Virus record (IMG/VR): IMGVR_UViG_3300033049_000033
Span: 64,001-125,635 of that record
DNA length: 61,635 nt
Origin: a virus
Lineage: Duplodnaviria > Heunggongvirae > Uroviricota > Caudoviricetes
Direction: 5' to 3' (one strand)
Both the position numbers and the translations under genes were made by a program. Below, one piece after another: positions 4,332 through 57,793 of the stretch; the stretch's first letter is position 1; every line of letters starts with the position of its first letter. Under the pieces are notes generated by a model. The model made no database searches and was not told the origin of the DNA. It saw only the letters and a list, made by a program, of their open reading frames with translations.

Positions 4332-4775
4332 ATGAAAAAAATGTTATCAGTAGTATTAATCCTGTCTATTCTTATGACATCTTGCGCAGACAGTCTGACC
4401 TATGAGAATGGTCAAGGACAAAAAGTAACCGTTACTTCAACTGGAGTATTCAATAAAGGCGATAGAGACCCTAACGTGAACTATGAGTTGTGCGTTGGTA
4501 ATGTGGTTTGGTCAATCATTTTGGTTGAAACCTTCTTTGCACCCGTTTACTTTGTCGGTTGGTCAATTATGGAACCAGTATCTGTAAGACAACAAGTTAT
4601 AATCGTAAGACCTGAAACAACATCGGAAATAAACGCTAAAGAAGTGCGCAAAGACAGTCTAAGACGGCAAGCATCGGCAGAACAAGCAAAGGTGGGTGAA
4701 AAGATTGAGGCACATTTGGATGCCGCAAGCAATGCCTTTTTCGGGAGCAATGAACCCGAACCTGATACGGAATAG
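4332..4775 (+). CDS. lipoprotein
   Basis: MKK + hydrophobic core + LMTS-C lipobox; internal hydrophobic segment. Confidence 0.7.
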   Translation: MKKMLSVVLILSILMTSCADSLTYENGQGQKVTVTSTGVFNKGDRDPNVNYELCVGNVVWSIILVETFFAPVYFVGWSIMEPVSVRQQVIIVRPETTSEINAKEVRKDSLRRQASAEQAKVGEKIEAHLDAASNAFFGSNEPEPDTE

Positions 4776-4800
4776 TATCATATAACATATTAGAATATTT

Positions 4801-4828
4801 AAGGTGGGATTTTTCTCACCTTTTTTTT
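4801..4828 (+). terminator. Rho-independent terminator
   Basis: AAGGTGGGA-TTTT-TCTCACCTT + T run, fused to the next promoter repeat. Confidence 0.65.
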
Positions 4829-4863
4829 GGTGGTGTGGATTTAATTGCTTATCATTGTATTAT

Positions 4864-4948
4864 GCCTAAGTGGTGGAATTGGTAGACACGCTGGACTTAA
4901 AATCCAGTTCTTGATAAAGGAGTACGGGTTCGATTCCCGTCTTGGGTA
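4864..4948 (+). tRNA. trnL: tRNA-Leu(TAA)
   Basis: Acceptor GCCTAAG/CTTGGGT; D loop GGAATTGGTA; anticodon arm CTGGA-CTTAAAA-TCCAG; long variable arm; T arm ACGGG-TTCGATT-CCCGT; promoter at 4826. Confidence 0.95.
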
Positions 4949-5069
4949 CAAACATGGTAATATCGATAGAAACAGATTTGGTGATTCTTATTATGTCTTG
5001 AAAAATTAACCTAAAATATTACGATAAAGGTTTGGTAGTGTGGATTTAATTGCTTACCTTTATGATTCA

Positions 5070-5134
5070 GATGGGTGTTAAGCGATAGGGGGGGCAAGAC
5101 CATCAAACTCCGACCCCTAACCCGACACTGGGTT
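5070..5134 (+). ncRNA. candidate pseudoknotted RNA at the predicted transcript 5' end
   Basis: GATGG(5070-74)/CCATC(5100-04) crosses TAGGGG(5086-91)/CCCCTA(5114-19); it starts a few nt after the 5031 promoter -7 box. Confidence 0.45.
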
Positions 5135-5138
5135 TATT

Positions 5139-5363
5139 CATGTCAAGAGGTAGTGTTCACTGACTTGACTACTTTATTAATGTTCTTTGAAATAAGCGGT
5201 TAGACTTAGTAATAAGTTCCACTGAATGTATTGAGTTAACATTATCGGGTTTATAGGGAAATGACCATACTTACCTATTTTAGAATGTGTTAGATACACA
5301 CATTTACCTTTAGTTGCAGTAATACTCATACCTAACCGCAAATACTAACCATGAATTGACATG
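5139..5363 (+). ncRNA. candidate structured RNA (~225 nt)
   Basis: Nested helices CATGTCAA/TTGACATG, GCGGTTAG/CTAACCGC, GTATTGAGT/ACTCATAC plus local hairpins; no ORF. Confidence 0.55.
5181..5193 (+). promoter_or_regulatory. boxA-like antitermination element
   Basis: TGTTCTTTGAAAT resembles rRNA-operon boxA; preceded by a GTAGT/ACTAC hairpin (boxB-like). Confidence 0.5.
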
Positions 5364-5368
5364 GTGAT

Positions 5369-5522
5369 AACGATATGGCGGAGCGGTTTAACGCGGAGGT
5401 CTCAGTCCAAATGATTGTGTGTGGGTGAACTCCACACTCTTTAGCTCATGGACGAAAACCACTAACTTTAGTAGAGAAGCTAATATCAAACAAGTTCACA
5501 GGTTCGAATCCTGTTATTGTTA
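5369..5522 (+). tRNA. Ser-type tRNA-like gene, anticodon CGA interrupted by a 50-nt insert
   Basis: AACGATA/TATTGTT acceptor; TG; GCG-GAGCGGTTTAA-CGC D arm; GAGGT-CT-C[5404-5453]GA-AA-ACCAC; 35-nt variable arm; ACAGG-TTCGAAT-CCTGT T arm. Confidence 0.7.
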
Positions 5523-5537
5523 TTTCCGAAAGGATAG

Positions 5538-5622
5538 AATCGTAGTGTGGAGTAAGGGGAGGTAAGTATACCTCATTGAGGCAATCCCGACCACTTAGCA
5601 GTCAAAGGACTTCGGTACGATT
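5538..5622 (+). ncRNA. candidate multibranch RNA
   Basis: AATCGTA/TACGATT closing stem with internal GAGGT/ACCTC and AGTC/GACT helices, followed by a T run. Confidence 0.4.
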
Positions 5623-5698
5623 ATTTTTAATTAATGTTTGGTAGTGTGGATTTAATTACTTATCTTTGTATTAAATAATTAACATAAAAACAATTAAC

Positions 5699-5878
5699 AT
5701 GAAATTTGTAGTGGCTCTTAAATATGCTAAGATGTTGTGTGGTGATGGTGACTATAACACAGAATATCATAGAGGTGTATGTGAAATACTGGCTGAAATA
5801 TACGGAGAAATGGATGTTCCGCATGAAGATAGAACTCAGCAGATAGCCGATATGTTAAACGTTACCATAAATCCATGA
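5699..5878 (+). CDS. hypothetical protein (59 aa)
   Basis: MKFVVALKYAK...VTINP, behind the promoter repeat at 5637. Confidence 0.6.
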   Translation: MKFVVALKYAKMLCGDGDYNTEYHRGVCEILAEIYGEMDVPHEDRTQQIADMLNVTINP

Positions 5879-5937
5879 ATTAACGTTTGATAGTATGGAT
5901 TTAATTACTATCTTTGTATTAAACAAAAACAAAAACA

Positions 5938-6162
5938 ATGTCGAATAGAATTAGTGATTTATCAGAGGACGAAATGGAAGATATGTTGGAACAAGTAATT
6001 GGCGACAGTTACACGTTAGTTCCTTTTCCTGAAAGCCAAGCATACATGACCGAGCCGTGGTTCGATGAAGAGGCTTCGTTGGATGTGGCGATGCTTGCAG
6101 GAGATAGTGCTTATTTCATCCCAACAAAATATGTGTTGGACGTTGAAATTGATGAAGATTAA
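5938..6162 (+). CDS. acidic hypothetical protein
   Basis: 74-aa ORF behind the promoter at 5886. Confidence 0.7.
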   Translation: MSNRISDLSEDEMEDMLEQVIGDSYTLVPFPESQAYMTEPWFDEEASLDVAMLAGDSAYFIPTKYVLDVEIDED

Positions 6163-54340: not shown

Positions 54341-55315
54341 TTAATTAGCCATGATATTTTTAGATAAAATAGTCTCGGTTGGGAACTCTAAGTATTGCTT
54401 GATGAAGTCCTCACCGTCTACTGCCGACCACTTTAATCCAGGAAACCTATGAACGTGGTTAGCTAATGCTAATTCAAGTTTCTTCATATACTCTAATAGT
54501 GTGTCACCGAACGCAATTGGGTGTGCAGTGTCTAAGATATTAAGTAATTCTTCATCTGTAATGTTATTCTCACTGTCTGCTAATATAAATCTAGGTGCCC
54601 CACCCTTGTGTGTCAGTAGATTAATTTTGTTTGCAACAATGTTAGTCACACTACCAGTTTCAGGCTCATTATTATTCTCACCTTTTTTAATCGGAGCATT
54701 AAATCGTAATTGAATGTATGCTGGATTTTGTTTGTTGAATATCTTATTATCATTCAAATCATGTTGACCAGCTCTAAGTAGGGCTTGATTTTCCTTAAAA
54801 ATTATGTCAGAATTGCGCCTTCCTTGCAATGCAATATCCGATACATTTGGATAGACGCCTTTGGCATCGGTAATCGTATCTACGTCAACGTTAGGTGCTA
54901 CAGGTGAGATACTTAGACTAGCTAAAGCTGTCTTATCAATGGTATCTTTTTGAAGCGTTAGGGGGCTTGAAATGATGGGACCCATATAAAATCTATCAGC
55001 ATACTTTGTATCATCATCAAACGTGAAAATGAATACCGCCTCACCCACTTTAGGTACCACGTTTAAATGGGCTGGTAATAGTGGAAAGCAGTTAGCTAAT
55101 TCTTTATCATTCTTATTCTTATCCCAACTAGCTCCTTCTATTCGTACACGTATTACATTAGGGTCAGAGTTAAATCTTTCATCGGCTGCTCTTTGTTGGT
55201 CATTAGTGGTATCTACCCCTACCTTACCTATAAATTTAACAGTACCAATTTGTATGCCCTTATCACTAGGGGCTTTATTAAATGCACTTTTTTGACCGAA
55301 CGTATACTTAGACAT
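54341..55315 (-). CDS. baseplate hub/spike protein (gp5/VgrG-like OB-fold N-terminus)
   Basis: IRVRIEG...CFPLLP...VPKVGEAVFI...RFYMG; C-terminal HVH. Confidence 0.65.
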   Translation of the reverse strand: MSKYTFGQKSAFNKAPSDKGIQIGTVKFIGKVGVDTTNDQQRAADERFNSDPNVIRVRIEGASWDKNKNDKELANCFPLLPAHLNVVPKVGEAVFIFTFDDDTKYADRFYMGPIISSPLTLQKDTIDKTALASLSISPVAPNVDVDTITDAKGVYPNVSDIALQGRRNSDIIFKENQALLRAGQHDLNDNKIFNKQNPAYIQLRFNAPIKKGENNNEPETGSVTNIVANKINLLTHKGGAPRFILADSENNITDEELLNILDTAHPIAFGDTLLEYMKKLELALANHVHRFPGLKWSAVDGEDFIKQYLEFPTETILSKNIMAN

Positions 55316-55514
55316 TTCTACTCTTTAATACTCTATTTATGTTCTCAAATTTAGACTCAAATTCCAACAGCGTAGCATAACCTTTATCTAAATCTTGAAC
55401 TAATTTGTTTTTAAGTGCCGTATGTGCGTCTGATAGTCGCTTTGCCTCCATCGCTAACTCATCATTAGTCATATCTATAAATTTATCTTCTTTTACTTCT
55501 TCTATCTTATTCAT
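55308..55514 (-). CDS. small coiled-coil protein
   Basis: 68 aa. Confidence 0.6.
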   Translation of the reverse strand: MNKIEEVKEDKFIDMTNDELAMEAKRLSDAHTALKNKLVQDLDKGYATLLEFESKFENINRVLKSRNV

Positions 55515-55518
55515 AACT

Positions 55519-55974
55519 TTACTGTGCTACCCCACCACTACTAACAATGCTTGGGTTTGTACCAACGCTAGCCACTGGCCATCCAGCATACCCAACACCG
55601 TTGGATTGAACTAAAATTGAACCTGGGTCGATGGTTGATGAAATTTTCATTTCGGTTTGTATTGCATTAACTATTTCCTCCATTCTGATTACCTCCAACG
55701 CGGTCATAACATTATCACCACCTTGAAATATCTCCCCCCCGACAGCTTCTGCTTCTGAGAATCTTGAGATTACTCTAGCGGAAAGGTCTCTGGCCGATAA
55801 TCCTGGACGCATCTTACTACCAATCATAATCAATGGTGGTGGTAAGGTTGCTGCTGGGGCTTTCATAATAGAAAATGCTGCCATTATTATCTTCAATATG
55901 TTACTCATGGAACTGAAACTACCACCAGCTCCAGCTCCCATTTTTTGTGTGCTTTTATTACAATTATCTGCCAT
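55519..55974 (-). CDS. hypothetical (possibly baseplate) protein
   Basis: 151 aa, coupled. Confidence 0.7.
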   Translation of the reverse strand: MADNCNKSTQKMGAGAGGSFSSMSNILKIIMAAFSIMKAPAATLPPPLIMIGSKMRPGLSARDLSARVISRFSEAEAVGGEIFQGGDNVMTALEVIRMEEIVNAIQTEMKISSTIDPGSILVQSNGVGYAGWPVASVGTNPSIVSSGGVAQ

Positions 55975-55976
55975 GA

Positions 55977-57398
55977 TTATACACTTATAGGGCTATTTTC
56001 TCTCATCATTCGTATAATGTCTTGAGGTACACCGATAAGACTTAATAGTTGTGCTATTTTAGCTGACGCCTGTTCTTTTAACATTCCGAGAGCGCTGGCT
56101 GCAATTAATTTCATTATGAACTTCAATACCTTATCTAATAGAACTTTAACAATCATGTCTCTAATTTTATTCACTAGATTACGTATTAGTGTCTTATTCT
56201 TGGATAGGAAATCTAATCCATTATCGTATGTAGAGGATTGTCCGTATACTATCATATAATTAATCAAGAATATAGTTAATACTTTTGGACTTATTATCGA
56301 ATTTACAATAGACCTAATTAATGAAGTCAGCATTAGATTAATAAACCCTAACTCAATACCATATTGGTCAACTGGTTCAGAGCTTTCTGCTGTGCTTTCT
56401 GCCATAATTGTGATATTAGAATTGATGACATCCCTTCGTTCCACTTGGGTGGATGTCGCAGCCATTTCTGATTTTAATTTTGTTAATTGCTTAATAGGTA
56501 CGTCCACTTGTACATTACCACAAGTTTCTAAGTATCTAATTCCATTTCTCCTGTTAGTTGCATCCTCTTTAATCTTTAGTAATTGGTCGTTTGTGAAGGA
56601 GAAGTAAGTATCATCGAATACATCTTCAACATCAGCATTAATTAGACAGTTTATTACGTTATCAATCTTACCTTCCATTTCAAGTTGTTCTTCAGACTTA
56701 TTAACTTCAGGTTGGACGGCAATACTACCGAATAATGTATCAATAATACTAATAATTAAATCTTCAGAGGCAAATAGTTTAATACTATCTACAAAATCGT
56801 TATTTAAATCAGTTAAATTTGTATAGCTTGAGTTCGGTCTGAAGTTTAAAACATTGTTGTCTGGAGTGGAAATTTGAGTAAACTCAACATCAAAAATATT
56901 ATCCCACGTATATGTATTACCCTCTTCTTGAATTGTATAATAAAGATATGTATTGAAGTCGGTAGTATTTAATGGGTCACCGTCTGTTGGTACGTCATCA
57001 AATATTAGGCTACCTGCTTGCGTGACTGGGTTGATTTTCATGATGTTCATGAAATCAATTTTCTTCACGGGAATGGTAATTCCATCATTAATCAACCAAT
57101 CTGGTAATGATGGGTCAACGCCACAGGCCACAAGACCCTTTAATTCTGTTTTTAAGGACTCCTTAACGACTATCTCAGCTTCTTCAGTGGCATACACCAG
57201 AATATCAACCAAAGTGTCTCTAAGCTCCTCATATCCAACCAAAGCCTTTAACAAGTCTATAAGAAAGTCTTGGGCACTTCCTTGGTTGTTGATAGAAGGG
57301 AAAGAGTTATTTAATTTAAGTTTTGGAAAGTCATCGGTCAGCGTTCGTAATGCCGCTATGTTTCCAAAGGCTTTTTCCTTTTGGTCTAATATTGGCAT
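55977..57398 (-). CDS. hypothetical protein
   Basis: 473 aa, coupled. Confidence 0.75.
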   Translation of the reverse strand: MPILDQKEKAFGNIAALRTLTDDFPKLKLNNSFPSINNQGSAQDFLIDLLKALVGYEELRDTLVDILVYATEEAEIVVKESLKTELKGLVACGVDPSLPDWLINDGITIPVKKIDFMNIMKINPVTQAGSLIFDDVPTDGDPLNTTDFNTYLYYTIQEEGNTYTWDNIFDVEFTQISTPDNNVLNFRPNSSYTNLTDLNNDFVDSIKLFASEDLIISIIDTLFGSIAVQPEVNKSEEQLEMEGKIDNVINCLINADVEDVFDDTYFSFTNDQLLKIKEDATNRRNGIRYLETCGNVQVDVPIKQLTKLKSEMAATSTQVERRDVINSNITIMAESTAESSEPVDQYGIELGFINLMLTSLIRSIVNSIISPKVLTIFLINYMIVYGQSSTYDNGLDFLSKNKTLIRNLVNKIRDMIVKVLLDKVLKFIMKLIAASALGMLKEQASAKIAQLLSLIGVPQDIIRMMRENSPISV

Positions 57399-57793
57399 TA
57401 GTCATCTGTTTCTGTTTTAGCCGCTTCTTGTTCGGCCTTGTCTTTTATCATCTTTCTGACGGCTGTGAAGTCGTCAATTGAGACTTCACCATCAGATGCT
57501 TCATTTAATGTTGCTTGGATATCTCCAGCGTGTTTAACACTATCATTCTGCAATTTAGCTATTTCTAACTTAACCTTGATGTTAGTCGTCTTTTCCTTTA
57601 TAGCATCGGTTTTAGCTTTAGCAATCTTTGTGTGGTCATCCACATCTTCTGGTACGGTACCGTTAGTTAACTCATTAACGATACCTTGGGCATCTCTGAT
57701 GTTCCCACACGCTTCATTGTAAACCTCTTGCAACACGCCCTCTAGACTTGTTATATTATTTACCTTAACTACTTGTTTTCTTTTTCTTGGCAT
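57398..57793 (-). CDS. helical hypothetical protein
   Basis: 131 aa, late motif at 57821-57828. Confidence 0.7.
   Translation of the reverse strand: MPRKRKQVVKVNNITSLEGVLQEVYNEACGNIRDAQGIVNELTNGTVPEDVDDHTKIAKAKTDAIKEKTTNIKVKLEIAKLQNDSVKHAGDIQATLNEASDGEVSIDDFTAVRKMIKDKAEQEAAKTETDD

Follow-up and report, generated by a model that had tools for sequence, protein, structure and literature searches.

A gene shaped like a class II tRNA, at positions 5369-5522 on the plus strand of a phage genome fragment, is split by a 50-nt insert inside its anticodon, and the native RNA as encoded is unable to read a codon. Judged by its sequence, the split gene is a real tRNA-derived phage gene, and we tentatively favour the possibility that its product acts as a tRNA-shaped RNA whose top half is functional but which takes no part in decoding. 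The fragment, referred to here at its full length of 61,635 nt as the window, forms the latter half of an IMG/VR virus record of 125.6 kb, which comes from a seawater metagenome, is rated 35% complete by CheckV and encodes, among other proteins, a large terminase, a portal protein and an HK97-type capsid protein. The phage is large and has a Bacteroidota host.

The early region of the window consists of a series of small genes, each with a near-identical promoter cassette in front of it. The cassette consensus (TTTG, about 19 nt, TAnnTTT(G)) is of the Bacteroidota type, as are the closest tRNA relatives of the split gene, and nine copies occur in the window compared with 0.01 expected by chance. 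One cassette (4826-4862) is directly followed by a canonical tRNA-Leu(UAA) gene (4864-4949, plus strand; called by ARAGORN, and 60.4 bits with the Rfam tRNA model), which matches TTA as the most frequent leucine codon in the phage (36%). Another of the nine, at 5031-5070 on the plus strand, opens a non-coding unit of about 560 nt between cassettes that holds no credible ORF and carries the split gene in its middle. The gene is preceded by a non-coding leader of about 295 nt (5075-5368) and followed by a non-coding trailer of about 114 nt (5523-5636), both on the same strand, the trailer ending in a T-rich tract directly after which the next cassette begins at 5637. The leader contains no credible ORF, has no Rfam match and folds no more stably than its shuffles; over leader and trailer together no Rfam family was found and the folds were not significant (z from +1.6 to -0.5, the latter for the trailer). 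A candidate second promoter near 5275-5315 was rejected, its spacer being about 4 nt over-long and TTTT standing in place of TTTG.

All arms of a class II tRNA are present where the earlier note had placed them, as borne out by stem pairing and universal nucleotides. The 5' strand of the acceptor stem (AACGATA, 5369-5375) forms seven of seven pairs, one of them G.U, with 5515-5521; the 3' strand TATTGTT and the discriminator A at 5522 together occupy 5515-5522, and CCA is not encoded. The D arm (5378-5394) combines a 3-bp stem, GCG/CGC, with an 11-nt Ser-type loop, GAGCGGTTTAA, that carries A14, G15, G18, G19 and A21, and the T arm (5498-5514) reads ACAGG-TTCGAAT-CCTGT. The universal tertiary nucleotides are all there (U8, A14, G18, G19, A21, G53, T54, T55, C56, A58 and C61), as are G9 and the G15:C48 pair. 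The 5' strand of the anticodon stem and the 5' part of its loop (GAGGT and CTC, 5396-5403) are separated by the insert (5404-5453), which RNAfold predicts to be rod-shaped, from the 3' part of the loop and the 3' strand of the stem (GAAA and ACCAC, 5454-5462). The anticodon stem thus formed by 5396-5400 and 5458-5462 has 5 bp including one A.A pair at 28:42, and its strands lie 57 nt apart instead of 7. An oversized, AU-rich variable arm of 35 nt follows (5463-5497), which is barely paired (-2.2 kcal/mol, z -0.1), whereas the variable arm of a typical tRNA-Ser has about 16-21 nt and is stably paired. At the acceptor end the gene has A1-U72, A2-U71 and A73, and the serine marks G1-C72, G2-C71 and G73 are missing; these charging determinants are known from E. 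coli SerRS and may not be the rule in the host of this phage.

Deletion of 5404-5453 or of 5403-5452 gives the same sequence with the loop CTCGAAA, so that the exact 7-nt loop reported in the earlier note is restored. Its uniqueness did not hold up: when the 50-nt deletion was shifted by 1 or 2 nt, the loops CTCAAAA (Leu CAA) and CTCAGAA (Leu CAG) resulted, which are equally acceptable, and an exact 7-nt loop is therefore not peculiar to the Ser(CGA) frame. We prefer that frame because of the homology to host tRNA-Ser.

With introns allowed, ARAGORN calls the split gene, and in the same mode it made no call in 2.5 Mb of Markov-random sequence (twenty genomes of the same size and dinucleotide composition); the element is therefore real, far beyond chance. 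In default mode, the comparison with and without 5404-5453 to which the earlier note had looked for a check gave no call on either form. The insert-less form was called by default ARAGORN in 405 of 405 variants from which at least 8 nt of the variable arm had been trimmed, so the length of this arm is the sole obstacle to a call. The Rfam tRNA model (RF00005) matched only the 3' part of the split gene, at 19.3 bits compared with a threshold of 29. Relative to a canonical tRNA, the stems and elbow of the top half conform, but the anticodon arm is interrupted and the score lies below the threshold.

When the native 154 nt were compared by BLAST with 401 Bacteroidota genomes, host tRNA-Ser(UGA) genes were returned, with alignments that run from nt 4 to nt 34-36 and end at the insert junction. 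A match to locus L179 lies in a GC-rich coding region and was set aside as chance. In the insert-less form, nt 8-43 are identical at 32 of 36 positions to one Bacteroidota tRNA-Ser(UGA) gene (comparison genes at loci L178, L181 and L182), the identical stretch spanning the whole D loop and GGTCT-NGA-AAACC. The D arm, which had been recognised as Ser-type from its pattern, is identical to that of the Bacteroidota tRNA-Ser(UGA), and alignment with 72 bacterial tRNA-Ser(CGA) genes agrees in that the D arm fits their consensus. The 3-bp D stem with C11:G24 is present in the gene as it stands, and the Ser-type anticodon arm GGTCT-NGA-AAACC appears solely after the insert is deleted. These similarities indicate that the D arm and the anticodon arm are descended from a host-type tRNA-Ser, and the alignment to the host genes places the insertion point at 33/34 or 34/35, beside the wobble base.

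The likeness to host tRNA-Ser(UGA) covers the D loop, the 3' strand of the D stem, the GGTCT...GAAAACC arm, the class II layout and the T loop, whereas the host genes have no insert, a variable arm of 16-17 nt, a GGAGAGA acceptor strand, G73 and T34. The split gene differs by C34, by A in place of G as the discriminator, by a variable arm twice as long, by seven compensated stem pairs and by the one A.A pair. In the acceptor stem five of seven pairs differ from host tRNA-Ser, four having changed on both sides and one having become G.U; in the T stem three of five pairs differ, each changed on both sides. Together the two stems hold seven fully compensated pair changes and no broken pair. All of the damage falls in the lower half and consists of the insert, the A.A pair at 28:42, in which both sides have changed, and the weak variable arm of doubled length. 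To judge from this pattern of paired changes, the upper half has clearly been under selection for its fold; the compensated stem changes may all be older than the insertion.

The insert folds into the rod that had been described, with GTCC/GGAC and ATGA/TCAT helices, an asymmetric internal loop and then a hairpin of 6-7 bp (RNAfold), and the rod extends the anticodon stem coaxially while leaving the mature domain intact. Its stability, however, is ordinary (z -1.3 to -1.5), and because about one in ten shuffles is equally stable the structure is no evidence in itself. The 125-kb record contains no second copy of the insert. That it is neither a group I intron nor of the bulge-helix-bulge (BHB) type stood up to closer scrutiny: over 4700-6000, Rfam searched with permissive settings returned neither a group I intron nor another ribozyme at E values up to 10, and an exhaustive scan in both geometries, with bulges of 2-4 nt and G.U pairs permitted, gave no BHB with bulges at 5402-5404 and 5452-5455.

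Neither class of established tRNA intron therefore accommodates the insert, although it resembles each in part. Group I introns in tRNA genes are about 200 nt or longer, with a P3-P9 core and a 3'-terminal G, and in cyanobacterial tRNA-Leu(UAA) such an intron lies between positions 34 and 35. The split gene shares with them the bacterial-type setting and an anticodon interrupted beside the wobble base, but its insert has 50 nt, ends in C (or in A in the alternative frame) and has no match to RF00028. Archaeal and eukaryal introns of the BHB kind are cut by EndA or TSEN at two bulges of about 3 nt, each with a splice site, that are separated by a 4-bp helix, and are sealed by RtcB or Trl1. The split gene has in common with these introns a short insert that prolongs the anticodon stem and whose removal would call for both an endonuclease and a ligase; in contrast to them, there is no BHB at the junctions, the position is not 37/38 and the 125-kb record has no EndA domain.

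A close published parallel is found in Lak megaphages, in whose tRNA genes 'enigmatic' introns are conserved that fall outside the Rfam families (Devoto et al. 2019, PMC6784885); how these inserts might be removed is unexplained, and bacterial tRNA finders miss the genes (PMC6784885). Here, too, a short insert in the anticodon region of a very large Bacteroidota phage is unclassified by Rfam and overlooked by tRNA finders. The Lak inserts, however, are conserved across genomes, one of them is tRNA-like, and their borders are fixed by alleles with and without the insert, whereas ours is an orphan plain rod inside the anticodon (33/34 or 34/35) with borders that rest solely on alignment to host tRNA-Ser genes. 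The split gene further differs from the Lak genes in its oversized variable arm and non-serine acceptor end, and deletion of its insert gives a callable tRNA only after the variable arm has been trimmed.

No orthologue, with or without the insert, was found in IMG/VR, INPHARED or protein-guided metagenome loci, and the covarying insert stems that the earlier note had hoped for in related phage contigs did not turn up. The patterns used in IMG/VR were the D arm plus T loop, a split Ser loop with a 40-65-nt gap, both junctions and an insert 20-mer; in INPHARED, blastn with the split gene matched generic T arms alone. The translated ORF that spans the insert has no homologue, and neither has the downstream 59-aa gene. 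The upstream 147-aa gene has homologues on at least ten contigs, of which L016 alone carries a tRNA-like element downstream of it; terminase (TerL) relatives at 88% identity lie on contigs too short to reach the tRNA locus. The sequence of the split gene is identical in three DNA runs, all from one seawater study, and since the contigs of these runs show no differing letter there is no natural variation to draw on. Two apparent joints in the run contigs proved to result from promoter cassettes matching one another. One contig of run X2 stops precisely at 5403 and leaves 5404-5437 uncovered, a break that is uninformative because contigs at depth 5-8 break every few hundred bases. A ligase of the RtcB or Rnl kind, as considered in the earlier note, was not found: the 125-kb record (35% complete) contains no member of the RtcB, Rnl1, Rnl2, LigT-like, EndA (PF01974) or CCA-adding families. 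RtcB was detected in a Bacteroides control genome, so the host could supply this enzyme.

An IMG/VR scan with the T arm and 3' acceptor strand found exactly one other phage species, on three contigs. This is a jumbo phage (G003) with a TerL 46% identical to ours and one contig of 270 kb that is 90% complete. In its matching gene, D_128, the T arm is identical and the 3' acceptor strand differs at one base, where pair 7 is compensated; D_128 also has A73 and a D arm with the same TGGCGGA start, and is preceded by a promoter of the Bacteroidota type. In contrast to the split gene, D_128 has no insert in its anticodon loop, which is uninterrupted and reads CUUAAUU; its variable arm has about 57 nt and its D loop is of the Leu type. 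Beside it lie further long tRNA-like paralogues whose acceptor stems are all paired, among them a Val(GAC) gene with a 53-nt variable region, a Tyr-like gene without U33 and several without a recognisable anticodon loop. Throughout this cluster the top halves are intact, and the anticodon loops either are unusual, with U37 or lacking U33, or are absent altogether. By this comparison the long variable arm appears as a trait of the lineage, seen in the tRNA and tRNA-like genes of the related jumbo phage. Among the oddities that the first reading had listed, the A discriminator and the A.A pair are present as described, but the 35-nt variable arm is nothing peculiar to this gene. An ATP-dependent RNA ligase is encoded by G003, where it is of the PHA02142 type, and by a further related phage, G005; RtcB was not found in G003.

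Two further contigs add to this picture. On L016 the homologue of the upstream gene (64% identical) is followed by a non-coding leader of at least 260 nt and, after it, a tRNA-like element 204 nt long, in which the acceptor, D and T arms are well formed and the bloated centre takes up about 130 nt. This element has no sequence similarity to the split gene, its leader has no detectable similarity to the leader or trailer of the split gene, and an IMG/VR scan with its 3' end gave no match. The more distant contig L030, which shares an early-gene homologue, encodes a tRNA-His(GUG) that is clean apart from a 48-nt insert next to its anticodon.

How might a tRNA-shaped RNA that cannot decode be of use to the phage? 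In the reading we favour, the part under selection would be the acceptor stem, the T arm and the D/T elbow. Host RNase P, RNase Z and CCA-adding enzyme would excise the RNA from the promoter-driven transcript of about 560 nt, and the top half would also stabilise it once excised. Charging by a host synthetase is conceivable because recognition by the serine- and leucine-tRNA synthetases does not involve the anticodon. The lower half, a 67-nt rod plus the long arm, would be either the working surface or free to drift. We infer that the RNA may be processed by tRNA enzymes, be stable, take no part in decoding and act as a carrier, decoy or scaffold. A decoy for host anticodon nucleases, as proposed in the earlier note, is unlikely because the RNA offers no anticodon loop to recognise; resistance to such nucleases, the other half of that proposal, is trivially true and would be useful only if the RNA were later spliced.

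A plain supply tRNA-Ser(CGA) is unattractive because of A73, the rebuilt acceptor stem and the rarity of UCG, the sole codon for a CGA anticodon, which makes up 7.5% of the serine codons in the phage; the long arm as a lineage trait and the odd or absent anticodon loops of the related phage argue in the same direction. It is the conservation of the top half, taken with these points, that leads us to favour a non-decoding RNA. Decay offers another explanation: a functional phage tRNA-Ser may have received 50 nt of inserted DNA in its anticodon and been left as a young, decaying pseudogene, tolerated because jumbo phages carry slack non-coding DNA. The gene is an orphan in all three collections searched, decoding is impossible as encoded, the A.A pair and the bloated, weak variable arm can be counted as further lesions, the 560-nt surroundings are non-coding with flanks devoid of significant structure, and the fold of the insert is ordinary, all of which agrees with decay. 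Even so we consider a pseudogene unlikely, given that 15 of 15 pairs in the acceptor, D and T stems and all elbow nucleotides are intact, that the long variable arm is a trait of the lineage and not a sign of decay, that a strongly conserved promoter cassette stands ahead of the gene and that the sequence is identical in three samples, though from one study. Furthermore, by our own estimate there is a chance of about 2% that four or five random changes would all fall in the lower 37% of an 88-nt tRNA, which disfavours plain decay. The halves of the anticodon loop, still exactly CTC and GAAA with the adjoining stem GGT/ACC as in tRNA-Ser, are what a recent insertion would leave behind, and they fit such an event or a spliced tRNA better than a long-standing non-decoding RNA. 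The latter is weakened further in that no orthologue was found that would show selection after the insertion, that the fold of the rod is not above chance and no partner is assigned to it, and that other phages have inserts whose removal gives clean tRNAs, as in the tRNA-His gene of L030 and in Lak.

Such inserts bring up the possibility, which we regard as somewhat unlikely here, of a true intervening sequence of the 'enigmatic' phage kind that is spliced by proteins. A phage or host endonuclease, other than EndA acting on a BHB, would cut at both ends of the rod and an RNA ligase would join the halves, to give the anticodon CGA, or CAA if the cuts fall one base further 3'; the discriminator A73 means that the product might carry leucine rather than serine. 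The insert-less loop, with C32, U33, A37 and A38, equals the tRNA-Ser(CGA) consensus, the trimmed insert-less gene is accepted by default ARAGORN, and the rod is coaxial with the anticodon stem and spares the mature domain, as in tRNA introns. The Lak introns and the tRNA-His(GUG) with its 48-nt insert are precedents, and an ATP-dependent RNA ligase is present in the related phages G003 and G005. On the other hand, neither an orthologue nor covariation was found, no ligase, healing enzyme or splicing endonuclease is present in the 125 kb (35% of the genome), and there is neither a BHB nor a ribozyme. Because the insert is not tRNA-shaped, the RNase P/Z route for other phage inserts is not obviously applicable. 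The A.A pair in the anticodon stem, the barely paired variable arm, the missing serine marks and the rarity of UCG likewise tell against splicing, as does a splice frame that could be Ser CGA, Leu CAA or Leu CAG. A bolder form of this proposal strikes us as distinctly doubtful, namely that the rod represents a kind of intron new to bacteria and their viruses, non-self-splicing and BHB-independent, cut by proteins and resealed by an Rnl-type ligase. The cuts would then lie beside the wobble base, at bonds that anticodon nucleases attack, and the product would be a class II tRNA with the serine anticodon CGA and the leucine-type discriminator A73, which could misread or recode UCG in the course of infection.

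Finally, the top half could serve as a processing signal, at which RNase P and RNase Z would cut to free leader (295 nt) and trailer (114 nt) as separate RNAs. Other long transcripts are punctuated by tRNA-like elements in this way, the promoter-bounded unit of about 560 nt has a long leader, and the same layout recurs on L016. We nevertheless think this very unlikely; it is weakly supported because the flanks show no significant structure, and leader and trailer belong to no Rfam family and do not resemble the L016 leader.

Short unclassified inserts in phage tRNA genes were already published in 2019 (PMC6784885). The sequence of the split gene is itself new, and it is set apart by its plain rod, its anticodon-internal position and its serine-derived scaffold, which carries a rebuilt, leucine-like acceptor end and a long arm. 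Each differently shaped insert narrows what a removal machinery, if one exists, can recognise, and this case adds borders placed by homology, a position within the anticodon, and an upper half that is kept while the lower half is remodelled. Splicing of the RNA would mean that a protein-based pathway of tRNA splicing still awaits discovery in bacteria or their phages; the lack of splicing would mean that large phages of Bacteroidota keep tRNA-shaped RNAs for a non-decoding purpose. Being a single orphan, the split gene does not by itself settle between the two, and the cluster of long-armed tRNA look-alikes in G003 points towards the non-decoding purpose. A comparable case, likened by description only, comes from T4, a phage of Enterobacteria, in which RNAC and RNAD are encoded in the tRNA gene region and are likewise stable non-tRNA RNAs beside phage tRNA genes with no assigned function. 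T4 is described as encoding 'RNAs of yet unknown functions' (PMC9697503).

Several other identities for the gene or its insert were considered and rejected. The gene is not a tmRNA, as it lacks G3:U70, is too short and leaves ARAGORN -m silent. It does not belong to the Asp-type giant-arm tRNA-like family either, having no GUC loop and a sole GTC (5405-5407) without a flanking 5-bp stem, and the UACUUCUA module is absent from 4776-5700. The rod is a single helix and not the three-way junction of a hammerhead; the A/GUC at the 5' junction that recalls a hairpin ribozyme is coincidental, with an unfitting opposite strand. The insert (CUCCACACU) is complementary over 9-10 nt to the trailer at 5544-5553, no more than chance would give (E 3.8). 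Excision by RNase III was discarded because its 2-nt stagger is mismatched to the junctions, and release of a tRNA-shaped insert by RNase P and RNase Z because a minihelix would need the spacer on the other strand. Cuts of the RNase P/RNase Z type at the insert would yield the loop CTCAAAA.

Window gene 4332-4775, located 5' of the tRNA region, encodes a 147-aa protein with a lipoprotein-like N-terminus (MKK, a hydrophobic stretch, then SC) and a conserved GWSI/EPV core, for which no match to a Pfam family was obtained. Homologues with 49-64% identity are encoded by several marine phage contigs. On one of these (L016), a non-coding leader (260 nt or longer) and a 204-nt tRNA-like element (L016:1785-1988) lie immediately 3' of a 64%-identical homologue. 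This element has an acceptor stem GCCCGTT/AACGGGC, a 4-bp D arm and a T arm GGTGG-TTCGAAT-CCACC, with a centre of about 130 nt between them. The element has no match in Rfam, and no sequence similarity was found between it and the Ser-type element at window 5369-5522. A second contig (L030), which is of low GC content and of phage origin, carries a gene distantly homologous to window 4332-4775, together with a clean gene for tRNA-His(GUG), its CCA end encoded (L030:1927-2050), that contains a 48-nt insert at position 36/37 or 37/38. This insert folds as a small three-way junction; of its two hairpins, one presents a T-loop-like 7-nt loop. Promoter cassettes of this phage group accompany a further homologue on a 2.3-kb contig (L017; NCBI GCA_026196215.1) from a metagenome-assembled genome labelled Candidatus Pacearchaeota; we regard this contig as most likely a mis-binned phage fragment.

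Within the non-coding unit of the window itself, neither the leader (5075-5368) nor the trailer (5523-5636) contains an ORF, matches an Rfam family or folds significantly. At its 3' end the trailer has a 7-bp closing stem and then a T-rich tract, a possible terminator of the unit. Inside the 50-nt insert (5404-5453), the sequence CTCTTTA, 3' of a hairpin, is reminiscent of a boxA and may be a candidate for such an element. Among the three DNA runs from a seawater study that contain this locus, run X2 yielded a contig that stops precisely at the insert's 5' junction (5403), and the next contig begins at 5438 with none in between; as contigs break often at depth 5-8, this gap speaks neither for nor against an allele lacking the insert.

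On the minus strand of the related jumbo phage G003 (a 270-kb IMG/VR record), aberrant tRNA-like paralogues, each 80-128 nt long, form a cluster (reverse-complement coordinates 55200-57450; L166-L167, L151). The acceptor 5' strand AGCAAGG is common to several of them, and their lower halves are oversized or unrecognisable; the Val(GAC) gene of the cluster features a 53-nt variable region with a T-arm-like hairpin inside. Outside the cluster the record contains 12 normal tRNA genes and, as called by ARAGORN, a predicted tmRNA gene (G003:120765-121186) whose tag peptide would end in VVAA. An ATP-dependent RNA ligase of 339 aa, composed of a PHA02142 OB-fold domain and PF09414, is encoded by G003 (L171:1465-2484; G003:228374-228862) and by G005 (L170), the related jumbo phages that bear the aberrant tRNA-like genes.
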